Shown here: in pieces, positions 8,975 through 54,984 of the stretch
Layout: every line of letters begins with the position of its first letter
How positions within the stretch are numbered: position 1 is the first letter of the stretch
Made by a program: the position numbers and the translations under genes
NCBI GenBank assembly: GCA_903845215.1
Contig: CAIMWI010000010.1
Span: 30,141 to 94,140 of the forward strand
Reading direction: 5' to 3'
DNA: 64,000 nucleotides
Source: an uncultured Rhodobacterales bacterium
GTDB lineage: Bacteria; Pseudomonadota; Alphaproteobacteria; Rhodobacterales; Rhodobacteraceae
Notes under the pieces: model-generated
Database searches by the model: none
Seen by the model: only the letters and a program-made list of their open reading frames with translations
What the model was told of the DNA's origin: nothing

Positions 8975-9679
8975 ATGTCACGATCCATTCGCCTGTTCGA
9001 TCTGATCCAGATTCTCCGCGACGGGCGTTTGCACCGGGCGTCAGATATGGCGCGGGATTTGGGCGTTTCAGTGCGGTCGATCTGGCGGGACATGGCGACA
9101 CTCGCGGCGTCTGGCATGCCAGTAGAGGGAGAGCGCGGCGTGGGCTATATTCTGCGCCAGCCCATCACCTTGCCACCCATGATGCTGCAACCGACAGAAT
9201 TGATCGCCCTGCGCTTGGGCGTGCGCTTGGTGGCCGAAGGGGCCGACCCCAACCTTGCCGCTGCAGCCCGAAGTTTGGCCGGCAAGATCGCCACCGTGGC
9301 CCCTGCCCCGCGCGATTCAGAGTTGAGCGACGATCTGTTTACCCCATCGCCACCCACCGCCCACCGCGCCAGCCCGCATCTGCCGATGCTGCGCAAAGCC
9401 ATCAGGCAAAGTGAACGCTTAACCATCGCCGTGCTGGACGGGGCGGGGCAACTGATCCAGCGTGACATCCGGCCCCTTGCCTTGGCGCTGACGGGGCAAA
9501 CTTGGGTCTTGGCCGCATGGTGTGACACCAAAACAGGCTTCGCAGCCTTTGGGTTGGACCGCTTGCTAGATATCGTGCCGCGCGGCGAGGCCTTTCCCCG
9601 TGAACCCGGCAAACGGCTGACAGATTATCGCAAGTGGCAAGCGAAAGGCGCGGGGCAAGTGGTCAAGTTGGAAGTTTAG
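8975..9679 (+). CDS. YafY-family transcriptional regulator (HTH + WYL domain)
   Basis: N-terminal wHTH (RLFDLIQILRDGRLHRASDMARDLGVSVRSIWRDMATL...GVGY) followed by a WYL-type C-terminal half (WVLAAWCD...FGLDRL). Confidence 0.8.
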   Translation: MSRSIRLFDLIQILRDGRLHRASDMARDLGVSVRSIWRDMATLAASGMPVEGERGVGYILRQPITLPPMMLQPTELIALRLGVRLVAEGADPNLAAAARSLAGKIATVAPAPRDSELSDDLFTPSPPTAHRASPHLPMLRKAIRQSERLTIAVLDGAGQLIQRDIRPLALALTGQTWVLAAWCDTKTGFAAFGLDRLLDIVPRGEAFPREPGKRLTDYRKWQAKGAGQVVKLEV

Positions 9680-9708: not shown

Positions 9709-10791
9709 TTAGCCGGCAAAAACAAAACAGCGATCGCGGCGGATCATCAGCCAAAGCGCCGTGCCAACCTTGGGCAGGAACACGCCGGGCACGGCGGCGG
9801 TCAGGGGCGAGTTGTCGAAATCCATTTTGAATTCCACAAGGCTTTCATGGCCCAAAAACCGCGACCGCATCACAGTGCCACGCGCGGCCGTGCCGTCTTG
9901 GGGCGTGGGGTTGGGGCCACGGCCAGCGCGGTCGAAATCAATCTTTAAATGCTGCGGACGGATCACGATATGCACAGGCGTGCCATCGCTATGGCCTGGC
10001 GTCAAAAACGCACCAAAAGGCGTTTGGGTCAGCGCCCCGCGCGAGGTGCCGCAGATGACGTTGACGTCGCTGAAAAAGGCCGCCGCGGCACGGTCGATCG
10101 GCGCGTTGTAAAGATTGTAGGGCGCGCCTTTTTGGACGATGACGCCGGCGCGCATCAGGGCTATTTCATCGGCCATGCGCATGGCTTCATTGGGTTCATG
10201 CGTCACAAGCAGAACGGCTGCGCCCTCTTCTTTCAAAAGGTCCAGCGTGGCGTCGCGGATGCCATCGCGCAGGCGGTTGTCTAGGCCCGAGAAGGGTTCA
10301 TCCATCAACATAACGCGCGGACGCGGGGCAAGGGCGCGGGCCAGCGCCACGCGCTGCTGTTCGCCGCCTGACAGCTGATGGGGGTGCTTGTCGCCAAAGC
10401 CCGTCAAATTGACCTTTTCCAGCAAGGCATCCACCCGCGCAGCGCGCTGCGGCACATTGCGCTGCAAGCCAAAGGCCACATTGCCGGCCACCGTCAGATG
10501 CGGAAACAGCGCGAAGTCTTGAAACATCAATCCCACACCGCGTGCTTCGGGCGGAAGTGCCGCGGTGGGACCAAAGACCTCGACCCCGTCAATCAGGATG
10601 CGGCCCGCATCTGGCTTTTCAACTCCGGCGATCATGCGCAAGGTGGTGGATTTGCCGCAACCCGACGGGCCAAGCAAGCAAGTCACCTGCCCCGCTTCGA
10701 CGACCAAAGACAAGTCAGATACGACCTTTTGCCCACCATAAGACCGCGAAAGCGATTGCACCACCAGTCGTGTGGCATCTGAACGGGGCAT
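9709..10791 (-). CDS. ABC transporter ATP-binding protein, FbpC/PotA-like with C-terminal TOBE-like extension
   Basis: Walker A GPSGCGKST, signature LSGGEQQRVALARAL and Walker B VMLMDEPFS. Start set at ATG 10791 (MPRSD...). No permease or binding protein is adjacent. Confidence 0.85.
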   Translation of the reverse strand: MPRSDATRLVVQSLSRSYGGQKVVSDLSLVVEAGQVTCLLGPSGCGKSTTLRMIAGVEKPDAGRILIDGVEVFGPTAALPPEARGVGLMFQDFALFPHLTVAGNVAFGLQRNVPQRAARVDALLEKVNLTGFGDKHPHQLSGGEQQRVALARALAPRPRVMLMDEPFSGLDNRLRDGIRDATLDLLKEEGAAVLLVTHEPNEAMRMADEIALMRAGVIVQKGAPYNLYNAPIDRAAAAFFSDVNVICGTSRGALTQTPFGAFLTPGHSDGTPVHIVIRPQHLKIDFDRAGRGPNPTPQDGTAARGTVMRSRFLGHESLVEFKMDFDNSPLTAAVPGVFLPKVGTALWLMIRRDRCFVFAG

Positions 10792-10859
10792 GGGCAAGGT
10801 CAATTCCCTATTGTTTTCATCAGAATTACCCTTATCAGCCGATCTGCCCTGCTGCAAGG

Positions 10860-12182
10860 CTACCGCGCCAAGATCAACTCTGCCATCAATCCGCCCAAAT
10901 CCGCACTCTGCCCCAAACGCAGCACCCCGCCATGCGAGCGCGCAATATCCGCTGCAATCGACAAGCCAAGCCCGACGCCCCCGCCAAAATTGGGGTCGCG
11001 CGCCGCATCAAGGCGGGCAAAGGGGCGCAGGGCCTCTTCGCGGCGGTCGGCCGGAATGCCGGGGCCGTCGTCTTCCACCACAAAGCGCAGCGATCGCTCG
11101 GTCAGGGCAAAGCACAGCCGCGCCTTTGTGCCATAGCGCAGAGCATTGCCGATCAGATTGTCAAGGGCACGGGTCACGGCTTGTGGGCGCATCCGCACTT
11201 GGCCTTGGCCTGTACAGACGCCAAGCGCAACCGATTGACCGCCGCGCTGGGTTTTGGCCATAACCTGTGCCAGAAGTTCAGCCGGGTCGACCGACACTGT
11301 CTCTTCTTGCGCATCGCCGCGGGCAAAGGCCAAGAACGCATCGACCAAGCGTTGCATCTCTTGAACATCGCCCAGAATTGCCTCGGTTTCCTCGGTTTGG
11401 TCCATCAAGGACAGACCAAGTTTCATGCGCGTCAAAGGGCCGCGCAGATCGTGGCTGACGCCTGAAAGCATCAGCGTGCGCTGTTCGATCTGGCGTTCGA
11501 TGCGCGCACGCATATCCAAAAACGCCATGCCGGCTGCGCGCACCTCGGCAGCGCCGCGGGGCTTATAGGGCAGGTTTTGGCCCCGACCAAAGGCCTCGGC
11601 CGCGGCGGCCATGCGGGTGATGGGAACCAGTTGATTGCGCAAAAAGGCAAAGGCCACTGCCGTCATCAAGATCGACGCCAAGGCCATAATCACCAACAGC
11701 TGATGCGGATTGCTGGCCGAGACGCGTTGACGCGAGATATCCACACGCATCGCGCCAAAACGGGTTTGCACCCAAGTCTGCACATTGCGCGGATCGGTTT
11801 GCATATCGACGGCCAGAACTTGCGGCAGGGTCGCGCGCATCACGGCACCCACTTCGCGCCCCGATAAATCCCAAACATCGCGCTGATCCGCAGCGGGAAC
11901 AGTTTGGCCCGCAGGCAGGGTTGCCACGAATTTCAAAGCCACGCTAAGTTCGGCGGCACGTGCTTGGGCCTGCGGCAGGTCTGGCGCGCTGTCAACCTGC
12001 GACAAAAGCAAACCCACCTCTATCCCCGCACCACGCGATAATTGTCGGGTGACGCCGTCAAAATGGCGCTGGATGAAGATGATCGAGACGACAACTTGCA
12101 CAAAGACCACAGGCAAGATCAAAATAAGCGCCGCGCGTCCATAAACGCTACGCGGGACATAGGATTTCAAGGTGAATGCCAT
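10860..12182 (-). CDS. two-component sensor histidine kinase (EnvZ/ChvG-like architecture)
   Basis: Two TM segments plus a HAMP-like linker. H-box SHDLRGPLTRM, N-box GNALRYG, G1 DDGPGIP and G2 GGVGLGLSIA. No response regulator in the window. Confidence 0.85.
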   Translation of the reverse strand: MAFTLKSYVPRSVYGRAALILILPVVFVQVVVSIIFIQRHFDGVTRQLSRGAGIEVGLLLSQVDSAPDLPQAQARAAELSVALKFVATLPAGQTVPAADQRDVWDLSGREVGAVMRATLPQVLAVDMQTDPRNVQTWVQTRFGAMRVDISRQRVSASNPHQLLVIMALASILMTAVAFAFLRNQLVPITRMAAAAEAFGRGQNLPYKPRGAAEVRAAGMAFLDMRARIERQIEQRTLMLSGVSHDLRGPLTRMKLGLSLMDQTEETEAILGDVQEMQRLVDAFLAFARGDAQEETVSVDPAELLAQVMAKTQRGGQSVALGVCTGQGQVRMRPQAVTRALDNLIGNALRYGTKARLCFALTERSLRFVVEDDGPGIPADRREEALRPFARLDAARDPNFGGGVGLGLSIAADIARSHGGVLRLGQSADLGGLMAELILAR

Positions 12183-13258: not shown

Positions 13259-13333
13259 TCCGGCGTAGCTCAGCGGTAGAGCAGCTGACTGTTAATCAGC
13301 TGGCCGTAGGTTCGATCCCTACCGCCGGAGCCA
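13259..13333 (+). tRNA. tRNA-Asn (anticodon GTT)
   Basis: Hand-folded 75-nt cloverleaf. Acceptor TCCGGCG/CGCCGGA, anticodon loop CTGTTAA, T-loop TTCGATC, encoded CCA. Confidence 0.9.
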
Positions 13334-14886: not shown

Positions 14887-15792
14887 TTAGCGTGGCAGGG
14901 GCGCGTAACTGCGCCAGTTGTGCTGCTCTTTAAAGCCCAAAACATCGCGGATTTTTTGGTTGGAAAGCAGGCTTTCGTTCGCACCGACCGGGCGGGTCAA
15001 AGGCACTTTGGGGAAAAACTGCGCCAAAAGCTCGGCGTTGGGTTGGGGGACGGAGTTGGTGTCGTTGACGGCGTTGAAGACTTGGTAGCCCAGCCCGTCT
15101 TTTTTCAGCGCAAGATCGACAATCTGCCCCAGATCGCGGGCGTCGATATAGCTAAAGGTGATGCGGCGGCGTGACCCTGGGTCTTTGGCAAAATCGGGAA
15201 AGCGGGCGTAGTCTTGCGGCTCCATCACATTGCCGATGCGCAAGGAATAGACATCGGCACCGCTGCGGCGTTGAAAGGCCTCGGCTGTCACCTCGTTGAC
15301 CTTTTTGGACATGCCATAGCTGTCCATCGGGTTGATCGGATAGGCTTCGTCCAACGGCAGATAGGCGGGGTCGGTCTGGCCATCGCTGAAACACACACCG
15401 TAAGTGGTTTCGGACGAGGCGATGATCACCTTGCGGATGCCCGATTTCAGCGCCGCTTCCAGCACGTTGTAGGTGCCCATCACATTAACGCAGTAGGTTT
15501 CATTGTCGGGTGCCAGCATTAAGGCCGGAATAGCCGCAAAATGTACCACGGCGTCAAAGGGGCGGTGGCCTAGGCCGTCTTCCAGATCTTCGCCGCTGGC
15601 ATAGGCGGTCATGGCGTTAAACATCTGCCCGCTGTCGGTGATATCGGCCACCAGATCGGCCACACCGGGATGGCGCAGCGCCACCTTATCGACATTCAGC
15701 ACCCTGTGCCCTTGGGTTGCCAGATAAGCCACCACATGTTTGCCCGCTTTGCCCGAACCGCCTGTAAAAAGTACCCGCATCAAACCCTCCAT
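14887..15792 (-). CDS. NAD-dependent epimerase/dehydratase family protein
   Basis: Rossmann motif VLFTGGSGKAGKHV and the YGMSK catalytic motif. The start may be the internal ATG at 15780. Confidence 0.8.
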   Translation of the reverse strand: MEGLMRVLFTGGSGKAGKHVVAYLATQGHRVLNVDKVALRHPGVADLVADITDSGQMFNAMTAYASGEDLEDGLGHRPFDAVVHFAAIPALMLAPDNETYCVNVMGTYNVLEAALKSGIRKVIIASSETTYGVCFSDGQTDPAYLPLDEAYPINPMDSYGMSKKVNEVTAEAFQRRSGADVYSLRIGNVMEPQDYARFPDFAKDPGSRRRITFSYIDARDLGQIVDLALKKDGLGYQVFNAVNDTNSVPQPNAELLAQFFPKVPLTRPVGANESLLSNQKIRDVLGFKEQHNWRSYAPLPR

Positions 15793-15891
15793 GATTTGGG
15801 CGCACCTTGCCTTAAGCCGCCGCCCAAGGCCAGCCCTTGCGCCCTGCCCCCTTGGCGGTATCTAATGGGGGCCAATCAGAACAGGCCCCAA

Positions 15892-17844
15892 ATGTCAGAC
15901 CTTTTGAGCAACACGACCGATACCTACAACGCCTCATCGATCGAGGTGCTGGAACCGCTAGAGGCAGTGCGCCTGCGGCCGGGGATGTATATCGGCGGGA
16001 TTGACGAGCGCGCATATCACCACTTGGCCGCCGAAATCATCGACAACGCGATGGACGAGGCGGTCGCAGGCCATGCCACGCGCATCGAGGTGGAATTGCA
16101 TGCCGACGGGTCGCTGACCGTGCGCGACAACGGGCGGGGCATTCCGGTCGACCCGCACCCGAAGTTTCCCGACAAATCCGCGCTAGAGGTGATTTTGTGC
16201 ACGCTGCATTCGGGCGGCAAATTTGGCGGCAAGGCTTATGAAACCTCGGGCGGATTGCACGGCGTGGGGTCTTCGGTGGTGAACGCGCTGTCAGACCGGA
16301 TGGATGTGGAAGTGGCGCTGAACAAAGAGCTTTACACCCAAAGCTTTTCGCGCGGCAAACCCTTGGCCCCCATTCGCAAGGTGGGGCCCGTGGCCAATCG
16401 GCGCGGCACTTGGGTAACATTCCACCCCGATGCGCAGATTTTTGGCAGCCAGCAGTTTCGACCAGGCCGTTTGATGCGGATGGTGCGATCCAAAGCCTAC
16501 CTGTTTTCAGGTGTGGAAATCCGCTGGAAAACCGCCATCCCCGATGGCGACACACCGACAGAGGCGGTGTTTCACTTTCCCGGCGGCTTGGCGGATTATT
16601 TGGCCGATACCTTGGAAAAAACCACAACCTATGCCGACAAGCCCTTTGCCGGAAAGGTGGGGTTTCAGGCCAAATTCGGGGTGCCCGGGTCAGTGGAATG
16701 GGCAATCAATTGGACACCGGCGCGCGATGGGTTCATTCAATCTTATTGCAATACCGTTCCGACGCCCGAAGGCGGCACGCACGAGACAGGGTTTTGGAAT
16801 GCAGTTCTCAAAGGCATCCGCGCTTACGGCGAATTGATCAAAAACCGCAAGACAGAATTGATCACCCGCGATGATCTGACAGCGGGGGGCTGCGCCCTTG
16901 TGTCATGCTTTATCCGAGAGCCGCAATTTGTGGGGCAGACCAAAGACCGCTTGGCCACCGAAGAGGCAGTAAAATACGTCGAAGGCGCGGTGCGCGACCA
17001 TTTTGACAATTGGCTGGCGGGCAATACGAAATATGCAGGGGCGATTTTAGATTTCCTGATCCTTCGGGCAGAGGAACGGTTAAAGCGGCGGCAAGAAAAG
17101 GAAACGGCGCGCAAGACGGCGACCAAAAAGCTGCGCTTGCCGGGGAAACTAACCGATTGCTCGGCCAAAAACCGCGATGGGACAGAATTGTTCATCGTGG
17201 AAGGCGATAGCGCGGGCGGGTCGGCCAAGGCGGCGCGCAACCGCGAAACGCAGGCCTTGCTGCCATTAAAGGGCAAGATTTTGAACGTGCTGGGGGCAGC
17301 CTCGGCCAAGTTGCATGACAATTCCGAAATTCGCGACATTTGCGAAGCCCTTGGCGTGACGATGGGGGCCAAGTTTAACGTTGACGATTTGCGCTATGAT
17401 AAAATCATCATCATGACCGACGCCGATGTCGATGGCGCGCATATCGCCAGCCTGCTGATGACGTTTTTCTTTTCCCAAATGCGCCCGCTGATCGACAAGG
17501 GCCACCTGTATCTGGCCTGCCCGCCGCTGTACCGGCTGACCCAAGGGGCCAAGCGGATCTATGTGGCGGATGATGCCGAAAAAGAGCTGATGCTGGCCAA
17601 GGGCTTGGGCGGGCGCGGAAAAATTGATGTGCAGCGGTTCAAAGGCTTGGGCGAGATGGATGCCAAAGACCTAAAAGACACCACGATGAATCCGTTGACA
17701 CGTCAGTTGATCCGCGTAACGATAGTTGAGGAAGACCCCGGCGAGACGGGCGACTTGGTTGAGCGTTTGATGGGCAAAAAGCCGGAATTGCGGTTTCAGT
17801 ATATTCAAGAAAACGCGAGGTTTGTTGAGGAGTTGGATGTTTGA
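15892..17844 (+). CDS. parE: DNA topoisomerase IV subunit B
   Basis: GHKL ATPase motifs (IIDNAMDEA, DNGRGIPVD, GGLHGVGSSVVNALS), Toprim EGDSAGGSAK, and the C-terminal QYIQENARFVEELDV. The 651-aa length (no GyrB insertion) favours ParE. Start set at ATG 15892. Confidence 0.93.
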   Translation: MSDLLSNTTDTYNASSIEVLEPLEAVRLRPGMYIGGIDERAYHHLAAEIIDNAMDEAVAGHATRIEVELHADGSLTVRDNGRGIPVDPHPKFPDKSALEVILCTLHSGGKFGGKAYETSGGLHGVGSSVVNALSDRMDVEVALNKELYTQSFSRGKPLAPIRKVGPVANRRGTWVTFHPDAQIFGSQQFRPGRLMRMVRSKAYLFSGVEIRWKTAIPDGDTPTEAVFHFPGGLADYLADTLEKTTTYADKPFAGKVGFQAKFGVPGSVEWAINWTPARDGFIQSYCNTVPTPEGGTHETGFWNAVLKGIRAYGELIKNRKTELITRDDLTAGGCALVSCFIREPQFVGQTKDRLATEEAVKYVEGAVRDHFDNWLAGNTKYAGAILDFLILRAEERLKRRQEKETARKTATKKLRLPGKLTDCSAKNRDGTELFIVEGDSAGGSAKAARNRETQALLPLKGKILNVLGAASAKLHDNSEIRDICEALGVTMGAKFNVDDLRYDKIIIMTDADVDGAHIASLLMTFFFSQMRPLIDKGHLYLACPPLYRLTQGAKRIYVADDAEKELMLAKGLGGRGKIDVQRFKGLGEMDAKDLKDTTMNPLTRQLIRVTIVEEDPGETGDLVERLMGKKPELRFQYIQENARFVEELDV

Positions 17845-18506
17845 AAGTCTATAAATTTATGTCTGCCAAATGGGCAAAAGAAGCTATTTTATCAAAAAGA
17901 TTAAAAATTAGTATAATTCCAACTCTGAATGATCCATGGGAAGGAAACGCGCTTAGTTACACTAGTGCTGAAGACAAAGAGGCTTGGAAACTCAGAATAG
18001 ATTACATATCCCTTAGCCTTGGCATGATTTGCTTTTCGAAAGAGTGGGCGGATCCTGTTCTCTGGTCACATTATTCGGAACAGCATAAAGGAATAGTACT
18101 CGGATTTGAACTAAACAGTCCTCTAACAACTGAAGTTAGATATAGAGAAAGATTAACGAAATATGATGACTTCAAGAAAACCAGCAGTAGTGAGGAAACA
18201 GAATTTGTCATTAGTGCTATTTCGAAAAAATATTTGAGCTGGGAATACGAAAAAGAAGTAAGGTTATTTACTACTTTCGGAAAGCCTGACCCAGTAAGTG
18301 GCCATTTCTTTAGAGATTTTGATAGTGAAATGCGGTTGACAGACGTAATCTTTGGCGCGCGTTACTCGGACTATGAGGAAATGACGTTTGTTGTCGCATC
18401 TATTCCAAGTGTATCGAAAGAAACTATTTCATGGTGGAAATCAACGCTTGGCAATGAAAATTTCAAAATGACACCAGGTAAGATTTGGAAGTTCGAGCAG
18501 CCATAA
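17841..18506 (+). CDS. DUF2971-like protein of unknown function on a low-GC insertion
   Basis: The only ORF in a ~0.7 kb AT-rich patch. The motifs VYKF, LNDPWEG, CFS..DPVLWSHYSEQHKGIVLGFE and SWEYEKEVRLF fit my recollection of PF11185. TTG 17841 overlaps the parE TGA and is preceded by GAGGAG at 17827-17832. An alternative ATG lies at 17859. Confidence 0.7.
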   Translation: MKVYKFMSAKWAKEAILSKRLKISIIPTLNDPWEGNALSYTSAEDKEAWKLRIDYISLSLGMICFSKEWADPVLWSHYSEQHKGIVLGFELNSPLTTEVRYRERLTKYDDFKKTSSSEETEFVISAISKKYLSWEYEKEVRLFTTFGKPDPVSGHFFRDFDSEMRLTDVIFGARYSDYEEMTFVVASIPSVSKETISWWKSTLGNENFKMTPGKIWKFEQP

Positions 18507-18553
18507 CAACTGTAAATAATAATGAAGGCTGTTTTTTGTGCGTCGCCCCCCCC

Positions 18554-18964
18554 CTACTCCTGCACCGTCTTCAAATACTCTGCAATCTCCACCAATCTTA
18601 ACGGCGTGGGCGTCAAGATCCCGTCGCCGGTATCCACCAGCACCGTTGGCCCCTCCATCAAGGGCGCAAACTTGGGCATCAGGGCGGAAGGGGCCTCTCC
18701 ATGGCTATAGCCCCAGATTTTTGACATCACATAGGCCATGGGGAACACCCCGCCATGGCGTGAGGATAGGCCCGTCAGGTCAGCGGGGGGGTGGGCAAGG
18801 CTTTTGGCCAGCTCGCCGTCACCCTTCGCACTACCCCCGTGGCATGGCGCGCAAAGTTCGGTGAAATCGGCTTTACCCGAACTGGGCGGCGTGGGCGCTT
18901 GGCCCGGCACGCAGGCGGCCAAAATCAGCAGGGCGGGCAGCAGATGGGGGGCGCGCATTGGCAT
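18554..18964 (-). CDS. c-type cytochrome lipoprotein
   Basis: Start set at ATG 18964, which gives a signal peptide plus lipobox (LLILAAC). Single heme motif CAPCH. Confidence 0.75.
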   Translation of the reverse strand: MPMRAPHLLPALLILAACVPGQAPTPPSSGKADFTELCAPCHGGSAKGDGELAKSLAHPPADLTGLSSRHGGVFPMAYVMSKIWGYSHGEAPSALMPKFAPLMEGPTVLVDTGDGILTPTPLRLVEIAEYLKTVQE

Positions 18965-19040
18965 TCCTTTGTCAGTTTGCGCCAGACTACACCTGTGGCT
19001 GGGTGTTGAAAACCTGTCGTGCGGCAAAACTATTCGCGGG

Positions 19041-19712
19041 TCAGACGATCTGCCCGTTTTGCAACCGTACCACGCGGTCCATCCGTGCGGCCAAATCCAT
19101 GTTATGGGTGGCGATCAGCGCCGAAAGCCCCGTTTCGCGCACGATTTGCATCAGCACATCAAAGACTTGGGCCGCATTGGCGGGATCAAGATTTCCCGTG
19201 GGTTCATCGGCCAAAAGCAGTTTGGGGCGATTGGCCAAGGCGCGGCAAAAGGCGACGCGCTGTTGCTCGCCGCCCGACAGGGCCGCAGGGCGGTGACTTG
19301 CGCGGGCCAGAACGCCGACGCGGGCCAACAGGTCGCGGGCGCGCGCCTCGGCCTCAGGCTTGGGGATGCCTTGGGCCAGTTGCGGCAGGGTGATGTTTTC
19401 CAGCGCAGAAAATTCCGGCAGCAGGTGGTGGAACTGGTAGATAAACCCCACCTCGGCGCGGCGCGCCTCGGTTCGGGCGCGGTCGTTCAGGCCGGTCATT
19501 TGGCGGGCGCCGTAGTGCACGCTGCCCGCATCGGCCACATCCAAAAGGCCCGCGATCTGCAGCAAGGTTGATTTGCCAGCGCCCGAGGGGGCGACAAGGG
19601 CCACGACCTCTCCGGCCGCCACAGTGATACTCGCGCCGCGCAGCACCACGACCTCGCCCGCTTTGCCACGATTATAGGCTTTTTCAATGCCTTGCAGGGT
19701 TAAGCTATTCAT
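19041..19712 (-). CDS. lolD: lipoprotein-releasing ABC transporter ATP-binding protein LolD
   Basis: Walker A APSGAGKST, signature LSGGEQQRVAFCRAL and Walker B LLLADEPTGNLD. Overlaps the upstream LolC/E-type permease. Confidence 0.9.
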   Translation of the reverse strand: MNSLTLQGIEKAYNRGKAGEVVVLRGASITVAAGEVVALVAPSGAGKSTLLQIAGLLDVADAGSVHYGARQMTGLNDRARTEARRAEVGFIYQFHHLLPEFSALENITLPQLAQGIPKPEAEARARDLLARVGVLARASHRPAALSGGEQQRVAFCRALANRPKLLLADEPTGNLDPANAAQVFDVLMQIVRETGLSALIATHNMDLAARMDRVVRLQNGQIV

Positions 19713-20985
19713 AGCGCAGCGCCTCGACCGGGTTCATGCGGGCGGCTTTGCGCGCGGGGATCAGGGTGATGACGAAAGACAGGCCCAACGACAGCGCCAT
19801 GGCCGACCCCACATCTCGCCCCTGAAGTTTGGAGGGAAGGGTGTAGATGCCCCGGATCGAAGGATCCCAAACACCCCCCCCCGCCCAATAGTTCACAAAG
19901 GAAAAGATCGGGTCGATGTACAGCGCAAACAGGCACCCTAGCGCCACGCCCATGCCCGTGCCGATCACACCTGTGAAGGATCCGCACAGGAAAAACACCC
20001 GCAGGATCGACCCCTCTGTCAGGCCCATGGTGCGCAAGATGCCAATGTCGCGGCCCTTGTTTTTCACCAGCATAATAAGACCAGAGACGATGTTCATCGT
20101 GGCGATCAGCACAAGGATCGACAAGATGATGAACATCACATTGTCCTCGACCGACAGCGCGCGCAAGAAAGCGCCAGAGCTTTGCTTCCATGTCCACAGC
20201 ATGGAAGCCGGCCCACCTGCCGCCATCAACGCATCGGCATAGATGTCAACGGCATCAGGGTCTTTGACCATGACCTCGTATTCATCCAAGCGCCCCTCGC
20301 GGTTAAAAAAGCTTTGCGCTTCGGCCAGGGGCAGATAAAGTCGCACCTTGTCAATGTCATAGCGGCCAGCGGTGAAGATGTATTCCACCGTATAGGCCTT
20401 GATCCTTGGGCTGGTTCCGAAGGCCGATTTCACGCCAGAAGGCGCGATCAAGCGGACCCTGTCGCCCACTGTCACGCCCAGCTCCCGCGCCATTTCCGAC
20501 CCCATAGCCAAGCCTTGCGGATAGTTGGCCAAGTTCCCCTGCCCCAGATTGCCCGCCCCGATGCGCGGCAGGCTGGCCAGATCGTCCAGCGTCATGCCGT
20601 AAACATCGCCGCCGGTGCTTTGATCAAAGGCCGTCACCATCACTTGGCCGCGCACCAAGGGGGCAACACGGGTCACGCCGGGCACGGCACGCAGGTTTTC
20701 TAGCGTTGCGGCTTGATCGGCAAAGCCTTTGATCAGGCGTCCGTTCTGATCGGCATAGCCCGCGGAATAGACCGTGACATGGGCATTGGCGCCCAAAATC
20801 GTGTCGACAAACTCGGCCCGAAACCCTGCGCGCACCGCCAAGGTGGCAATCAGCGCAAAGACCGCCAAGGTGATGCCCACAAGGCTGATCCATGTCATGA
20901 CAGAAACGCCCCCTTCGGCGCGGCGGGCACGCAAGTAGCGCCACGCGATCATGAATTCGAAGGGCGCAAAGGGGCGGGTTGACAA
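19705..20985 (-). CDS. lipoprotein-releasing ABC transporter permease (LolC/LolE family, FtsX-like)
   Basis: 426 aa. N-terminus FEFMIAWRYLRARR, a large periplasmic loop, and a C-terminal FtsX/MacB-type 3-TM bundle. Confidence 0.9.
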   Translation of the reverse strand: MSTRPFAPFEFMIAWRYLRARRAEGGVSVMTWISLVGITLAVFALIATLAVRAGFRAEFVDTILGANAHVTVYSAGYADQNGRLIKGFADQAATLENLRAVPGVTRVAPLVRGQVMVTAFDQSTGGDVYGMTLDDLASLPRIGAGNLGQGNLANYPQGLAMGSEMARELGVTVGDRVRLIAPSGVKSAFGTSPRIKAYTVEYIFTAGRYDIDKVRLYLPLAEAQSFFNREGRLDEYEVMVKDPDAVDIYADALMAAGGPASMLWTWKQSSGAFLRALSVEDNVMFIILSILVLIATMNIVSGLIMLVKNKGRDIGILRTMGLTEGSILRVFFLCGSFTGVIGTGMGVALGCLFALYIDPIFSFVNYWAGGGVWDPSIRGIYTLPSKLQGRDVGSAMALSLGLSFVITLIPARKAARMNPVEALRYE

Positions 20986-41677: not shown

Positions 41678-41752
41678 GCGGGCGTAGCTCAGGGGTAGAG
41701 CATAACCTTGCCAAGGTTAGGGTCGAGGGTTCGAATCCCTTCGCCCGCTCCA
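41678..41752 (+). tRNA. tRNA-Gly (anticodon GCC), copy 1
   Basis: Hand-folded 75-nt cloverleaf. Acceptor GCGGGCG/CGCCCGC, anticodon loop TTGCCAA, T-loop TTCGAAT, encoded CCA. Confidence 0.9.
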
Positions 41753-43074: not shown

Positions 43075-43149
43075 GCGGGCGTAGCTCAGGGGTAGAGCAT
43101 AACCTTGCCAAGGTTAGGGTCGAGGGTTCGAATCCCTTCGCCCGCTCCA
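43075..43149 (+). tRNA. tRNA-Gly (anticodon GCC), copy 2, identical to copy 1
   Basis: The same 75 nt as 41678-41752. Identity extends 7 nt upstream (ACGGAGT) and 1 nt downstream. Confidence 0.9.
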
Positions 43150-53928: not shown

Positions 53929-54984
53929 ATGACAGACAAACGGTCCATCATCGACGAAAGCCACGATTTCTGGTCAGACATCGTCTTTCCGCTGTTGCTA
54001 AGCCATTTTCCGACCCAAACCGCCCAAATGGCCGCAGGCTTTTTCGGCTATGGCTCAGACGTGCTGCGGCTGGATGATCAGTATTCCACCGATCACCACT
54101 TTGGCTTGCGCGTCAATATCCTGCTGCCTGACGCAATGATGCAGGCCCAAGGCCGCGCCATCGAAGATATGCTGGCCGCCCACCTGCCCCAAACGTGGCG
54201 CGGGCGCGAACTGCGCGAAGGCTACACCCGCACCAAAGGCGTGGCCCTCGCAGCATTGGACCATCACCTTCTTTCCACCATCGGCCTGCCACACGCCCCG
54301 CGCAGCCTGACCGACTGGCTGCAAATTCCCGAGGAAGACATCACCCACATCGTCGCAGGCGAGGTCTGGCACGACCCTTCGGCGCGGTTTTCCACCATCC
54401 GCCACAGCCTTTTGGCCTATTACCCCGAACCCGTCCGCCTGCGCCGTCTGGCCCATTGGTCGCGCTATTTCTCGGGCATGGGGGTTTATGCGTTGAAGCG
54501 CGCCTTGCTGCGCAACAACACGCTGTATGCCTCGACCACCTTTGCGCGCAGCCTGCGCTGGGGGGTGCAGATGGCGTTCATGCTGGACCGCACCTATTAC
54601 CCTTACGACAAATGGCTGACCGAGATGTTCCACCGCCTGCCCCGCATGGGCGCGCGTCTGGCGCATATCGTGCAAAAGGCCCCGCTTCTCACGACGGGTT
54701 GGGACGAAAAGTTGCAGTTGTTGCACGACATGTCAGATATTCTGGACGCGACCATGGTCGAAGACGGGCTGATCGCCCCACATCCGCGTTATAAGGTGTC
54801 AGACACCTCGGGCTACCGGCTTTTGGAATCGGCCTATGCCGAGTTGATCCAGAAATGTCCGGCAGAGATTAAAACCCTGATCCCGCAGTGGGAACAGGTG
54901 CATTGGGAATCCTTTCATTCGGAATTTGTCGACAAAGTCGAGCTGTCCGATTGGCGGCGTATGTTGGTATTGGAGCAAGCATGA
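53929..54984 (+). CDS. DUF4037-like protein of unknown function
   Basis: 351 aa. GYGSDVLRLDDQYSTDHHFG and the later YYPEPVRLRRLAHW...YPYDKW blocks resemble DUF4037-containing proteins. This call is from memory only. Confidence 0.55.
   Translation: MTDKRSIIDESHDFWSDIVFPLLLSHFPTQTAQMAAGFFGYGSDVLRLDDQYSTDHHFGLRVNILLPDAMMQAQGRAIEDMLAAHLPQTWRGRELREGYTRTKGVALAALDHHLLSTIGLPHAPRSLTDWLQIPEEDITHIVAGEVWHDPSARFSTIRHSLLAYYPEPVRLRRLAHWSRYFSGMGVYALKRALLRNNTLYASTTFARSLRWGVQMAFMLDRTYYPYDKWLTEMFHRLPRMGARLAHIVQKAPLLTTGWDEKLQLLHDMSDILDATMVEDGLIAPHPRYKVSDTSGYRLLESAYAELIQKCPAEIKTLIPQWEQVHWESFHSEFVDKVELSDWRRMLVLEQA

Follow-up and report, generated by a model that had tools for sequence, protein, structure and literature searches.

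Proteins of the DUF2971 family (Pfam PF11185) are significantly similar to the ADP-ribosyltransferases (ARTs) DarT, AbiGi and Tox-ART-HYD1, and the same analysis describes their motifs as a poorly conserved His (motif I), a strictly conserved Tyr (motif II) and ExE (motif III), with about 18% of the family predicted to be secreted effectors (PMC12522546). Aristaios, a DUF2971 protein of 316 aa carried by the Lactococcus plasmid pUCCL641, was shown experimentally to be a single-gene, abortive infection (Abi)-like anti-phage system that hinders phage transcription, and its AlphaFold model is ART-like (PMC11381338, PMC13064643). Other family members have entered defence catalogues as PDC systems, which are untested candidates taken from genes embedded in BREX, DISARM and type I restriction-modification (RM) loci (bioRxiv 10.1101/2024.01.29.577857). 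Here we analyze a member of this family in a 64,000-nt stretch of DNA (the window) from an uncultured Rhodobacterales bacterium (contig CAIMWI010000010.1), in which the open reading frame (ORF) 17841-18506 lies directly behind parE, the gene for DNA topoisomerase IV subunit B, and faces a convergent cytochrome c gene. This ORF is an intact, conserved DUF2971/PDC-S31 gene; it appears to circulate horizontally and, on balance, most likely encodes a stand-alone Abi-type anti-phage effector. From the parE stop to the cytochrome c stop extends a hypervariable, compositionally foreign slot, which across the Paracoccaceae holds different low-GC, mostly single-gene, often defence-type cargo in almost every lineage. 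The cargo gene of the window thus belongs to a known kind (DUF2971, PDC-S31, Aristaios-like), and it is the parE-coupled mini-hotspot that looks new: we found no description of a PDC-S31 gene or of a parE-linked or Rhodobacterales hotspot in the literature, which does not prove that there is none.

The family assignment rests on several profiles. The cargo protein scores 29.8 bits against Pfam DUF2971 (gathering cutoff 22, E = 1.6e-6), with residues 74-142 spanning the entire 89-position model, and the motifs from which an initial annotation, made from the letters alone, had proposed this family (VYKF, LNDPWEG, DPVLWSHYSEQHKG and SWEYEKEVRLF) are all present and mostly invariant in homologues. 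The PADLOC PDC-S31 model PDLC04991 matches over nearly the whole length (E = 1e-27), positions 1-180 of its 208 aligning with residues 1-190; four further PDC-S31 models match at 6e-25 to 7e-6, and phrog_1762, a PHROG of unknown function, matches at E = 2.4e-27. No NCBIfam model matches the protein, and an exact-sequence look-up returned no record. A profile search of 1.84 billion representatives yielded 21,787 related clusters (825 at E <= 1e-30), the best matches being mostly about 205-230 aa long; plasmids contributed 220 records with DUF2971 relatives and phages or satellites 11, and the relatives in viral contigs are at most 31% identical. When 115 relatives were aligned, Pfam matched DUF2971 in all of them and nothing else, and the invariant residues were N30, D31, P32, G61, P72, W75, Y78, F89, Y101, K130, W134, Y136, E137, E139, R141 and G172. 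The cargo protein resembles Aristaios in its PF11185 membership, in being encoded by a single gene without a partner, in its location on accessory DNA and in its predicted ART-like fold; Aristaios differs in its length, which is about 95 aa greater, and in its origin from a plasmid of a Gram-positive host, whereas the cargo gene is chromosomal and fused to parE. Unlike the PDC genes, it is not embedded in a BREX, DISARM or type I RM locus but stands between two housekeeping genes.

A first structure prediction from nine sequences was unusable (predicted local distance difference test, pLDDT, 51) and was rerun with the 115-sequence alignment, which gave a compact single domain at pLDDT 92 and a predicted template-modelling score of 0.88. 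A Foldseek search of the PDB placed Thermus DarT (7omw and 7omx) at ranks 1-2, non-significantly (E = 0.17-0.42), and cholera toxin at rank 22, and the viral library returned uncharacterised phage proteins only. Y78 and E137-x-E139 are invariant in the 115 sequences, their labels as motifs II and III following PMC12522546 and not a structural superposition, and the motif-I His is not conserved. An ART fold is plausible, as the invariant Tyr and ExE and the published analyses agree. The likeness to DarT, a single-stranded DNA thymidine ADP-ribosyltransferase (7omw), lies in the non-significant top fold matches and in the Tyr and ExE motifs; DarTG systems differ, for the cargo locus has neither an adjacent DarG macrodomain gene nor a PADLOC match to DarT or DarG, and without DarG it is not a DarTG locus. 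The literature, the motifs and the weak fold match suggest that the cargo protein is an NAD+-using ART. On infection it may modify a nucleic acid or an essential protein at the expense of NAD+, and phage gene expression would be blocked as a result, an outcome reported for Aristaios, its distant relative.

The initial annotation had held that no function is known for the family, a statement that Aristaios, with its anti-phage activity, and the predicted ART-like fold have left out of date (PMC11381338, PMC12522546). Its guess at a defence role fares better, being favored by the PDC-S31 match, by Aristaios and by the defence-type contents of the slot elsewhere, with the qualification that the family member assayed is a distant one. 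From family membership and location, the cargo protein would be an anti-phage effector, and the same slot in other strains carries NsnA/GmrSD-HNH, TIR-TM, Pycsar, Mrr, Abi and HEPN genes.

The variability of the slot is visible in relatives that retain both anchors. A genome scan with the cytochrome c protein retrieved 11 Paracoccaceae metagenome-assembled genomes (MAGs), including Pseudorhodobacter antarcticus (individual loci are given below as L numbers). The DUF2971 gene is absent from all 11, and no empty parE-cytochrome c junction was found among those with both anchors, in which the gap measures 0.87-2.8 kb and its contents differ and are mostly low in G+C. The cargo is a GmrSD_N plus HNH protein in L006 (PADLOC NsnA, E = 6e-90), a TIR protein in L008 (PADLOC TIR-TM, E = 1e-55), a DUF2188 protein (PDC-S16, E = 4e-30) with an unknown 212-aa protein in L001, unknown proteins in L003, L005 and L010, and a glycosyltransferase of native G+C in L009. 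Around it the chromosome is conserved: the last 29 aa of ParE are invariant in all relatives examined, the cytochrome c gene is 52-97% conserved in the 11 genomes and adjoins lolD, and the synteny continues on the right through lolD and lolC/E (tblastn identity 74-95% in relatives). In every locus compared the parE stop is also the exact end of nucleotide conservation, which in the group closest to the window resumes a few bases from the cytochrome c stop, at a run of C whose length is 5-9 among the window, L001, L008, L012, L016 and L017. This poly-C tract marks the right border and may be prone to slippage or be the edge of recombination. As in described core hotspots, core flanks (95-100% identical) enclose differing contents (cargo unrelated or 47-74% identical).

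The same interval also holds very different versions of one gene. The nearest protein homologues of the cargo likewise lie directly 3' of parE, and these parE-linked DUF2971 alleles are 42-74% identical to that of the window. In amino acid comparisons with the window, L012-14 have ParE at 99%, cytochrome c at 96% and LolD at 95% identity around a DUF2971 protein at 47%; L016 has ParE and cytochrome c at 99% around one at 74%; and L017-19 have ParE at 100%, cytochrome c at 97% and LolD at 98% around one at 71%. Nucleotide identity to L016, L017 and L012 is 95-100% in the flanks, falls progressively to 45-70% within the gene and, from about 55%, climbs back to 98-100% near 18547. All DUF2971 alleles have a G+C of 0.35-0.445, against 0.53-0.68 in the flanks. 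By the Nei-Gojobori method the ratio of nonsynonymous to synonymous divergence (dN/dS) among the alleles is 0.17-0.31 and dS is 0.5-2.5, whereas the proportion of synonymous differences (pS) in the adjacent parE is 0.10-0.21. High dS together with low dN/dS indicates old lineages under purifying selection that were shuffled into near-identical backgrounds, and divergent alleles within near-identical flanks indicate that the DUF2971 lineage is old at the parE locus. Rapid positive selection was rejected as the source of the allele divergence on the same values. Phage-driven balancing selection may keep such old, divergent alleles in the population. In L025 and L026 the gene order is lolE-lolD-cytc-Fic-parE-DUF2971-BrnTA, and the overlap with parE is retained despite the rearrangement. 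A small-ORF plus Fic module lies 5' of parE there and BrnT/BrnA lies 3' of the DUF2971 gene (L025:5198-5818, L026:1214-1800), and both sides of parE seem to attract toxin-antitoxin modules in this lineage. More distant family members (at most 39% identity) are not linked to parE; one lies beside a GAPS4-type PD-(D/E)XK gene and IS200 transposases.

Metagenomic sequences extend this picture. Scanning metagenome contigs with the parE tail pattern GGTTTGTKGAGGAGTTGGATGTNTRA gave at least 120 loci, and the following counts apply to the matches listed. The upstream ParE is 74-90% identical to that of the window in all of them. Mean G+C is 0.587 over the final 300 nt of parE but 0.468 over the 300 nt that follow its stop, and the drop is at least 0.08 in 67 of the 83 loci with enough sequence. 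BLASTP groups at least 117 low-GC ORFs (>=80 aa), drawn from 106 loci, into 85 families, in which DUF2971 is represented by two ORFs of another subfamily. PADLOC matches among the cargo are PDC-S31, RT-TIR, Pycsar (PycC, PycTM), type IV restriction enzyme, TIR-TM, PDC-M50A, PDC-S47, PDC-S16, PDC-S02 and 2TM effectors, and Pfam matches are NYN, HEPN_AbiU2, HEPN_RiboL-PSP, Abi_C, Abi_alpha, AbiJ N-terminal domains, TIR_2, DUF4145, BglII, Mrr, SieB, RelA_SpoT and DUF4238. In loci whose contig includes the right anchor, 148-4993 nt (median 1440) separate the parE stop from the next core gene. Cargo tends to run in the direction of parE: its first ORF does so in 83 cases and points the other way in 23 (binomial p = 3.8e-9), and this first ORF starts within 60 nt of the parE stop in 76 loci. 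The reading frame of 41 loci extends without interruption back to a start within the parE tail, namely NTGA in 30 and the ATG of GGATGT in 11; six of these 41 also have an ATG that shares the A of the parE TGA (TGATG), and 33 have no other start preceded by a Shine-Dalgarno (SD) sequence within 40 codons. Two loci are apparently empty: L099 has a perfect GC hairpin directly 3' of the parE stop followed by native-GC sequence, and in L120 the stop is followed by 144 nt of GC-rich spacer that leads to the lolD stop, the cytochrome c gene being absent.

Some further features of these loci may be recorded. The same TIR-TM-like cargo is found as two consecutive ORFs in the L008 gap (about 132 aa each) and at L071:230-914, and its recurrence in two independent assemblies is either a true two-gene layout or a common frameshift. 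L003, L005 and L006, whose cargo differs, share a non-coding block of about 150 nt outside the cytochrome c stop (e.g. L006 ~8977-9130), which holds …CATGGTTAACAC…CCCCCCGCGCGTAGAGACGGAAGGAAGAC… and has no Rfam or tRNA match. L002, with a cytochrome c protein 97% identical to that of the window, has at 10549-11750, beyond the cytochrome c gene, a low-GC 280-aa ORF without a family match and then rplM/rpsI-like genes; parE is not there, which reflects a rearrangement or a MAG misassembly.

Within the window, the features of the locus are collected in Table 1. The cargo ORF has a G+C of 0.375 and a third-position G+C (GC3) of 0.34, against a GC3 of 0.69 in parE and 0.74 in both the cytochrome c gene and lolD, and it is the sole stretch of the window with a G+C below 50% (666-nt windows: mean 0.601, sd 0.025, minimum 0.530; z = -9.1 for the ORF). 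The low-GC patch with a single 221-aa ORF that the initial annotation had noted is therefore real, and its right edge at 18537 agrees with the GC analysis. Its left edge, which had been set at the parE stop, does not: a cumulative walk gives a low-GC block of about 17793-18537, so that about 50 nt of the conserved parE tail already belong to the drop. Promoter and terminator scans of the site and folding of 18495-18560 gave nothing above shuffled controls. The parE product reaches 744.1 bits with NCBIfam TIGR01055 parE_Gneg (equivalog cutoff 723.35), the gyrB models staying under their own cutoffs, and matches the Pfam domains GyrB, Toprim and GyrB_C. As its alignment to the NCBIfam model begins at residue 84 of the mechanical ORF, about 80 codons at the 5' end of this ORF (from 15670) are probably not part of parE, and the real start probably lies near the methionine of MSDLLSN…. 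The cytochrome c ORF has weak Pfam matches to Cytochrom_C and Cytochrome_CBB3, below cutoff, and the gene likely starts at or downstream of 18961.

Table 1 Features of the parE slot and its flanks in the window
Feature	Position	Strand	Remarks
parE (DNA topoisomerase IV subunit B)	15670..17844	+	left anchor of slot
GAGGAG Shine-Dalgarno-like hexamer	17827..17832	+	parE codons Glu-Glu, 8 nt 5' of TTG
TTGA start/stop overlap	17841..17844	+	cargo TTG 17841-17843, parE TGA 17842-17844
DUF2971 / PDC-S31 gene, 221 aa	17841..18506	+	present slot cargo; Pfam, PADLOC, PHROG
AT-rich spacer, 47 nt	18507..18553	.	closes with 8-C run (18546-18553); touches cytochrome c stop
Putative lipoprotein c-type cytochrome, convergent	18554..19027	-	right anchor; CXXCH motif
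lolD	19041-19712	-	NCBIfam best match LolD_lipo_ex 235.8 bits, under curated cutoff 307.75
lolC/E	19705-20985	-	NCBIfam best match lolCE 359 bits, under curated cutoff 362.45

How the cargo gene could be expressed is suggested by its junction with parE. The TTGA overlap and the GAGGAG in front of it, on which the initial annotation had based a start at TTG 17841, are read directly in the sequence, and the start itself is supported by the protein: close homologues all begin M-(K/R)-V-Y-K-F, Y4 and F6 are conserved in at least 90% of the 115 family members, and the model opens with a beta-strand at residues 2-7 (pLDDT about 98). This strand is missing from the database gene call, which begins at ATG 17859 and has 215 aa, and the conserved N-terminus and the first strand together make TTG 17841 the correct start. 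The 4-nt overlap, as TTGA or GTGA, occurs in every parE-linked DUF2971 allele. The GAGGAGTTGGATGTNTRA tail with its GAGGAG is present in all relatives and in at least 120 metagenomic loci, parE ending invariantly in GAG GAG TTG GAT GTN TGA, and both alternative frames of this tail offer starts (an ATG at -7, an NTG at -3 and an ATG sharing the A of TGA). The cargo gene, which would lack a promoter and ribosome-binding site of its own, may rely on read-through from parE for its transcription and, for its translation, on ribosomes that re-initiate at the TTGA overlap with the help of the GAGGAG of the parE Glu-Glu codons. The signals behind the idea that the gene rides on an essential operon are present, but they are a property of the invariant parE tail and not peculiar to this gene, and many unrelated cargo genes seem to use them too.

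Concerning its mobility, no integrase or transposase was seen beside the window cassette, neither parE-tail nor other direct repeats surround it, tRNA and Rfam scans found no element at the junctions, and no large ORFs other than the annotated housekeeping genes lie within about 3 kb on either side; the scans and the ORF survey here agree with the initial annotation. Elsewhere in the window there are two tRNA-Gly(GCC) genes with equal Rfam scores, 1.4 kb apart (41678-41752 and 43075-43149), a tRNA-Asn at 13259 and a tRNA-Thr at 54190. Between parE and the DUF2971 gene, L015 and L020 carry a RelE-HTH module whose two ends are marked by directly repeated parE 3'-end sequence, of 141 nt and 88% identity in L015 (571-711, 1373-1513) and of 88 nt and 89% in L020 (1922-2009, 2655-2742); L109 carries the same module and a parE-tail repeat of 59 nt and 86%, about 650 nt 3' of the parE stop. 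The differences between the repeats at these loci are almost all synonymous, as if the incoming RelE-HTH DNA had brought a foreign parE tail, and the displaced DUF2971 gene of L015 and L020 still starts in the TTGA/GTGA of the parE-tail remnant. A site-specific element leaving parE-tail repeats was considered as a general mechanism and rejected, the repeats occurring only with RelE-HTH, in 3 of 136 loci. Cargo may instead be swapped by homologous recombination in the highly conserved flanks. Gene-transfer agents (GTAs) typical of Rhodobacterales carry DNA pieces of about 4 kb, and that they are the vehicle of exchange is pure hypothesis, prompted only by the taxon and the cassette size.

A broader proposal, which we put forward tentatively and consider less probable than the effector function itself, is that the last codons of parE serve as an "expression socket" for a family-wide, integrase-free exchange of single-gene immune cassettes in the Paracoccaceae. 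Since the parE tail provides an SD sequence and start codons in both alternative frames, a promoterless cargo recombined flush with the stop would immediately share the low, constitutive expression of an essential gene. Such cassettes would move by flank homology, and their median size of about 1.4 kb would fit the GTA payload of about 4 kb. If the proposal is true, the slot would be a concentrated source of new defence genes, most of them unannotated.

Core defence hotspots are found in E. coli and Vibrio, similar to those of Pseudomonas aeruginosa. The latter, cDHS1 and cDHS2, are flanked by core genes and have median sizes of 6-26 kb (PMC10250203). The parE slot shares with these hotspots the fixed core flanks, the low-G+C contents that vary between close relatives, the known defence genes beside many unknowns and the lack of a single mobile element family. 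It differs in being tiny (median 1.4 kb), usually with one gene; in its left edge, which is the stop of an essential gene, with co-oriented cargo often starting in the last codons of that gene; in the absence of visible mobility genes; and in its conservation at the level of a family (ParE 74-90%) and not of one species. Integron cassettes resemble the cargo in being promoterless single genes that depend on a resident upstream signal, and the RelE-HTH module of L015, L020 and L109 resembles 3'-end-integrating islands in its repeat of the 3' end of the target gene. The window cassette differs from both in having no integrase, no attC-like repeats and no array, the tail repeat occurring with RelE-HTH only.

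Three other explanations of the cargo gene have to be weighed against a defence role. The one that survives best, which we nevertheless consider improbable, is that it is a selfish or competitive toxin-like accessory gene (an addiction remnant, or an effector against bacteria or eukaryotic grazers) without a role in phage defence, persisting only as the slot tolerates cargo. The predicted secretion of about 18% of DUF2971 proteins (PMC12522546) would fit such a gene, as would the RelE-HTH, BrnTA and Fic modules that cluster at the same locus and the lack of annotation for most slot cargo families. However, the protein is a compact 221-aa domain with no secretion-associated Pfam or PADLOC match (signal peptides were not searched), and no cognate antitoxin or immunity gene stands beside it. 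Moreover, the family was flagged by its embedding in BREX, DISARM and RM loci (bioRxiv 10.1101/2024.01.29.577857), Aristaios gives phage resistance, and the annotated neighbors in the slot are overwhelmingly of Abi, HEPN, TIR, restriction and Pycsar types.

A second explanation, still less probable in our judgment, is that the DUF2971 protein is a partner of topoisomerase IV, for instance by modifying DNA or ParE/ParC, and that its fusion to parE follows operon logic. Every contextualised member of the DUF2971 clade (42-74% identity) indeed sits on the parE 3' end with the same overlap, the linkage is kept in the rearranged L025 and L026, the gene of L015 and L020 carries a copy of the parE tail along, and DarT-like enzymes act on DNA. 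Nevertheless, strains with 95-100% identical parE, cytochrome c and lolD carry TIR, GmrSD-HNH or DUF2188 plus an unknown gene instead, DUF2971 accounts for only the two cargo ORFs mentioned among the listed census matches, distant relatives occur away from parE on plasmids and phages, and the composition is foreign (GC3 0.34 against 0.69 in parE). Linkage to parE is also expected of a cassette that is mobile only by flank recombination, and no co-variation between the ParE C-terminus and the DUF2971 allele is visible because the ParE tail is invariant.

The remaining explanation, the one-off insertion into an empty junction that the initial annotation had in mind, would be a single recent, lineage-specific arrival by a mobile element, and although the foreign composition (z = -9), the absence of the gene from the closest genome-level relatives L001 and L008 and the empty-looking junctions of the distant L099 and L120 speak for it, it is unlikely and already largely refuted by the divergent alleles at the same position (47-74% identical, dS 0.5-2.5, in flanks 95-100% identical; 42-74% over all parE-linked alleles), by the other cargo of 0.9-2.8 kb in the relatives with both anchors and by the lack of an integrase, transposase, tRNA or att-type direct repeats flanking the cassette.

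Several points also weigh against the anti-phage interpretation that we prefer and against the coupling of the gene to parE. The function of the cargo protein and of its ~210-aa subfamily is predicted, PDC-S31 being a candidate only, and Aristaios is distant, its kinship measured only by shared Pfam membership. The fold match to DarT (probability 0.2-0.3, TM 0.36-0.40) lends weak support to an ART, searching the PDB by sequence with either profile yielded no meaningful match, and no ART, DarT or AbiGi family emerged when the 115 relatives were scanned with Pfam at a lax threshold (E <= 1). There is no antitoxin or partner gene beside the ORF that would silence a toxin constitutively co-translated with an essential gene. 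The co-transcription and translational coupling of parE and its cargo are themselves deduced from sequence, and some of the junction starts in the census are over-called, as the ORF rule takes the first start in an open frame. "Defence-rich" rests on the minority of census ORFs that have an annotation, and stands without a genomic background rate. Finally, the parE tail is absent from viral contigs, and no recombination vehicle was identified.

DUF2971 comprises more than 20,000 clusters with one validated anti-phage member and a biochemistry that is so far predicted; with the cargo gene, this family and PDC-S31 gain a compact subfamily of about 210-220 aa from Alphaproteobacteria. The slot in which the gene lies behaves like a miniature defence hotspot whose cargo appears to borrow both the transcription and the ribosome-binding site of parE, the 3' end of this gene forming a natural, defined insertion and expression site for candidate immune genes. 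If this is true, it would explain how promoterless immune genes are swapped between strains without a dedicated mobile element and how very old alleles can coexist in one population, and reading the sequence right after the parE stop in Paracoccaceae may yield dozens of unannotated candidate immune genes.

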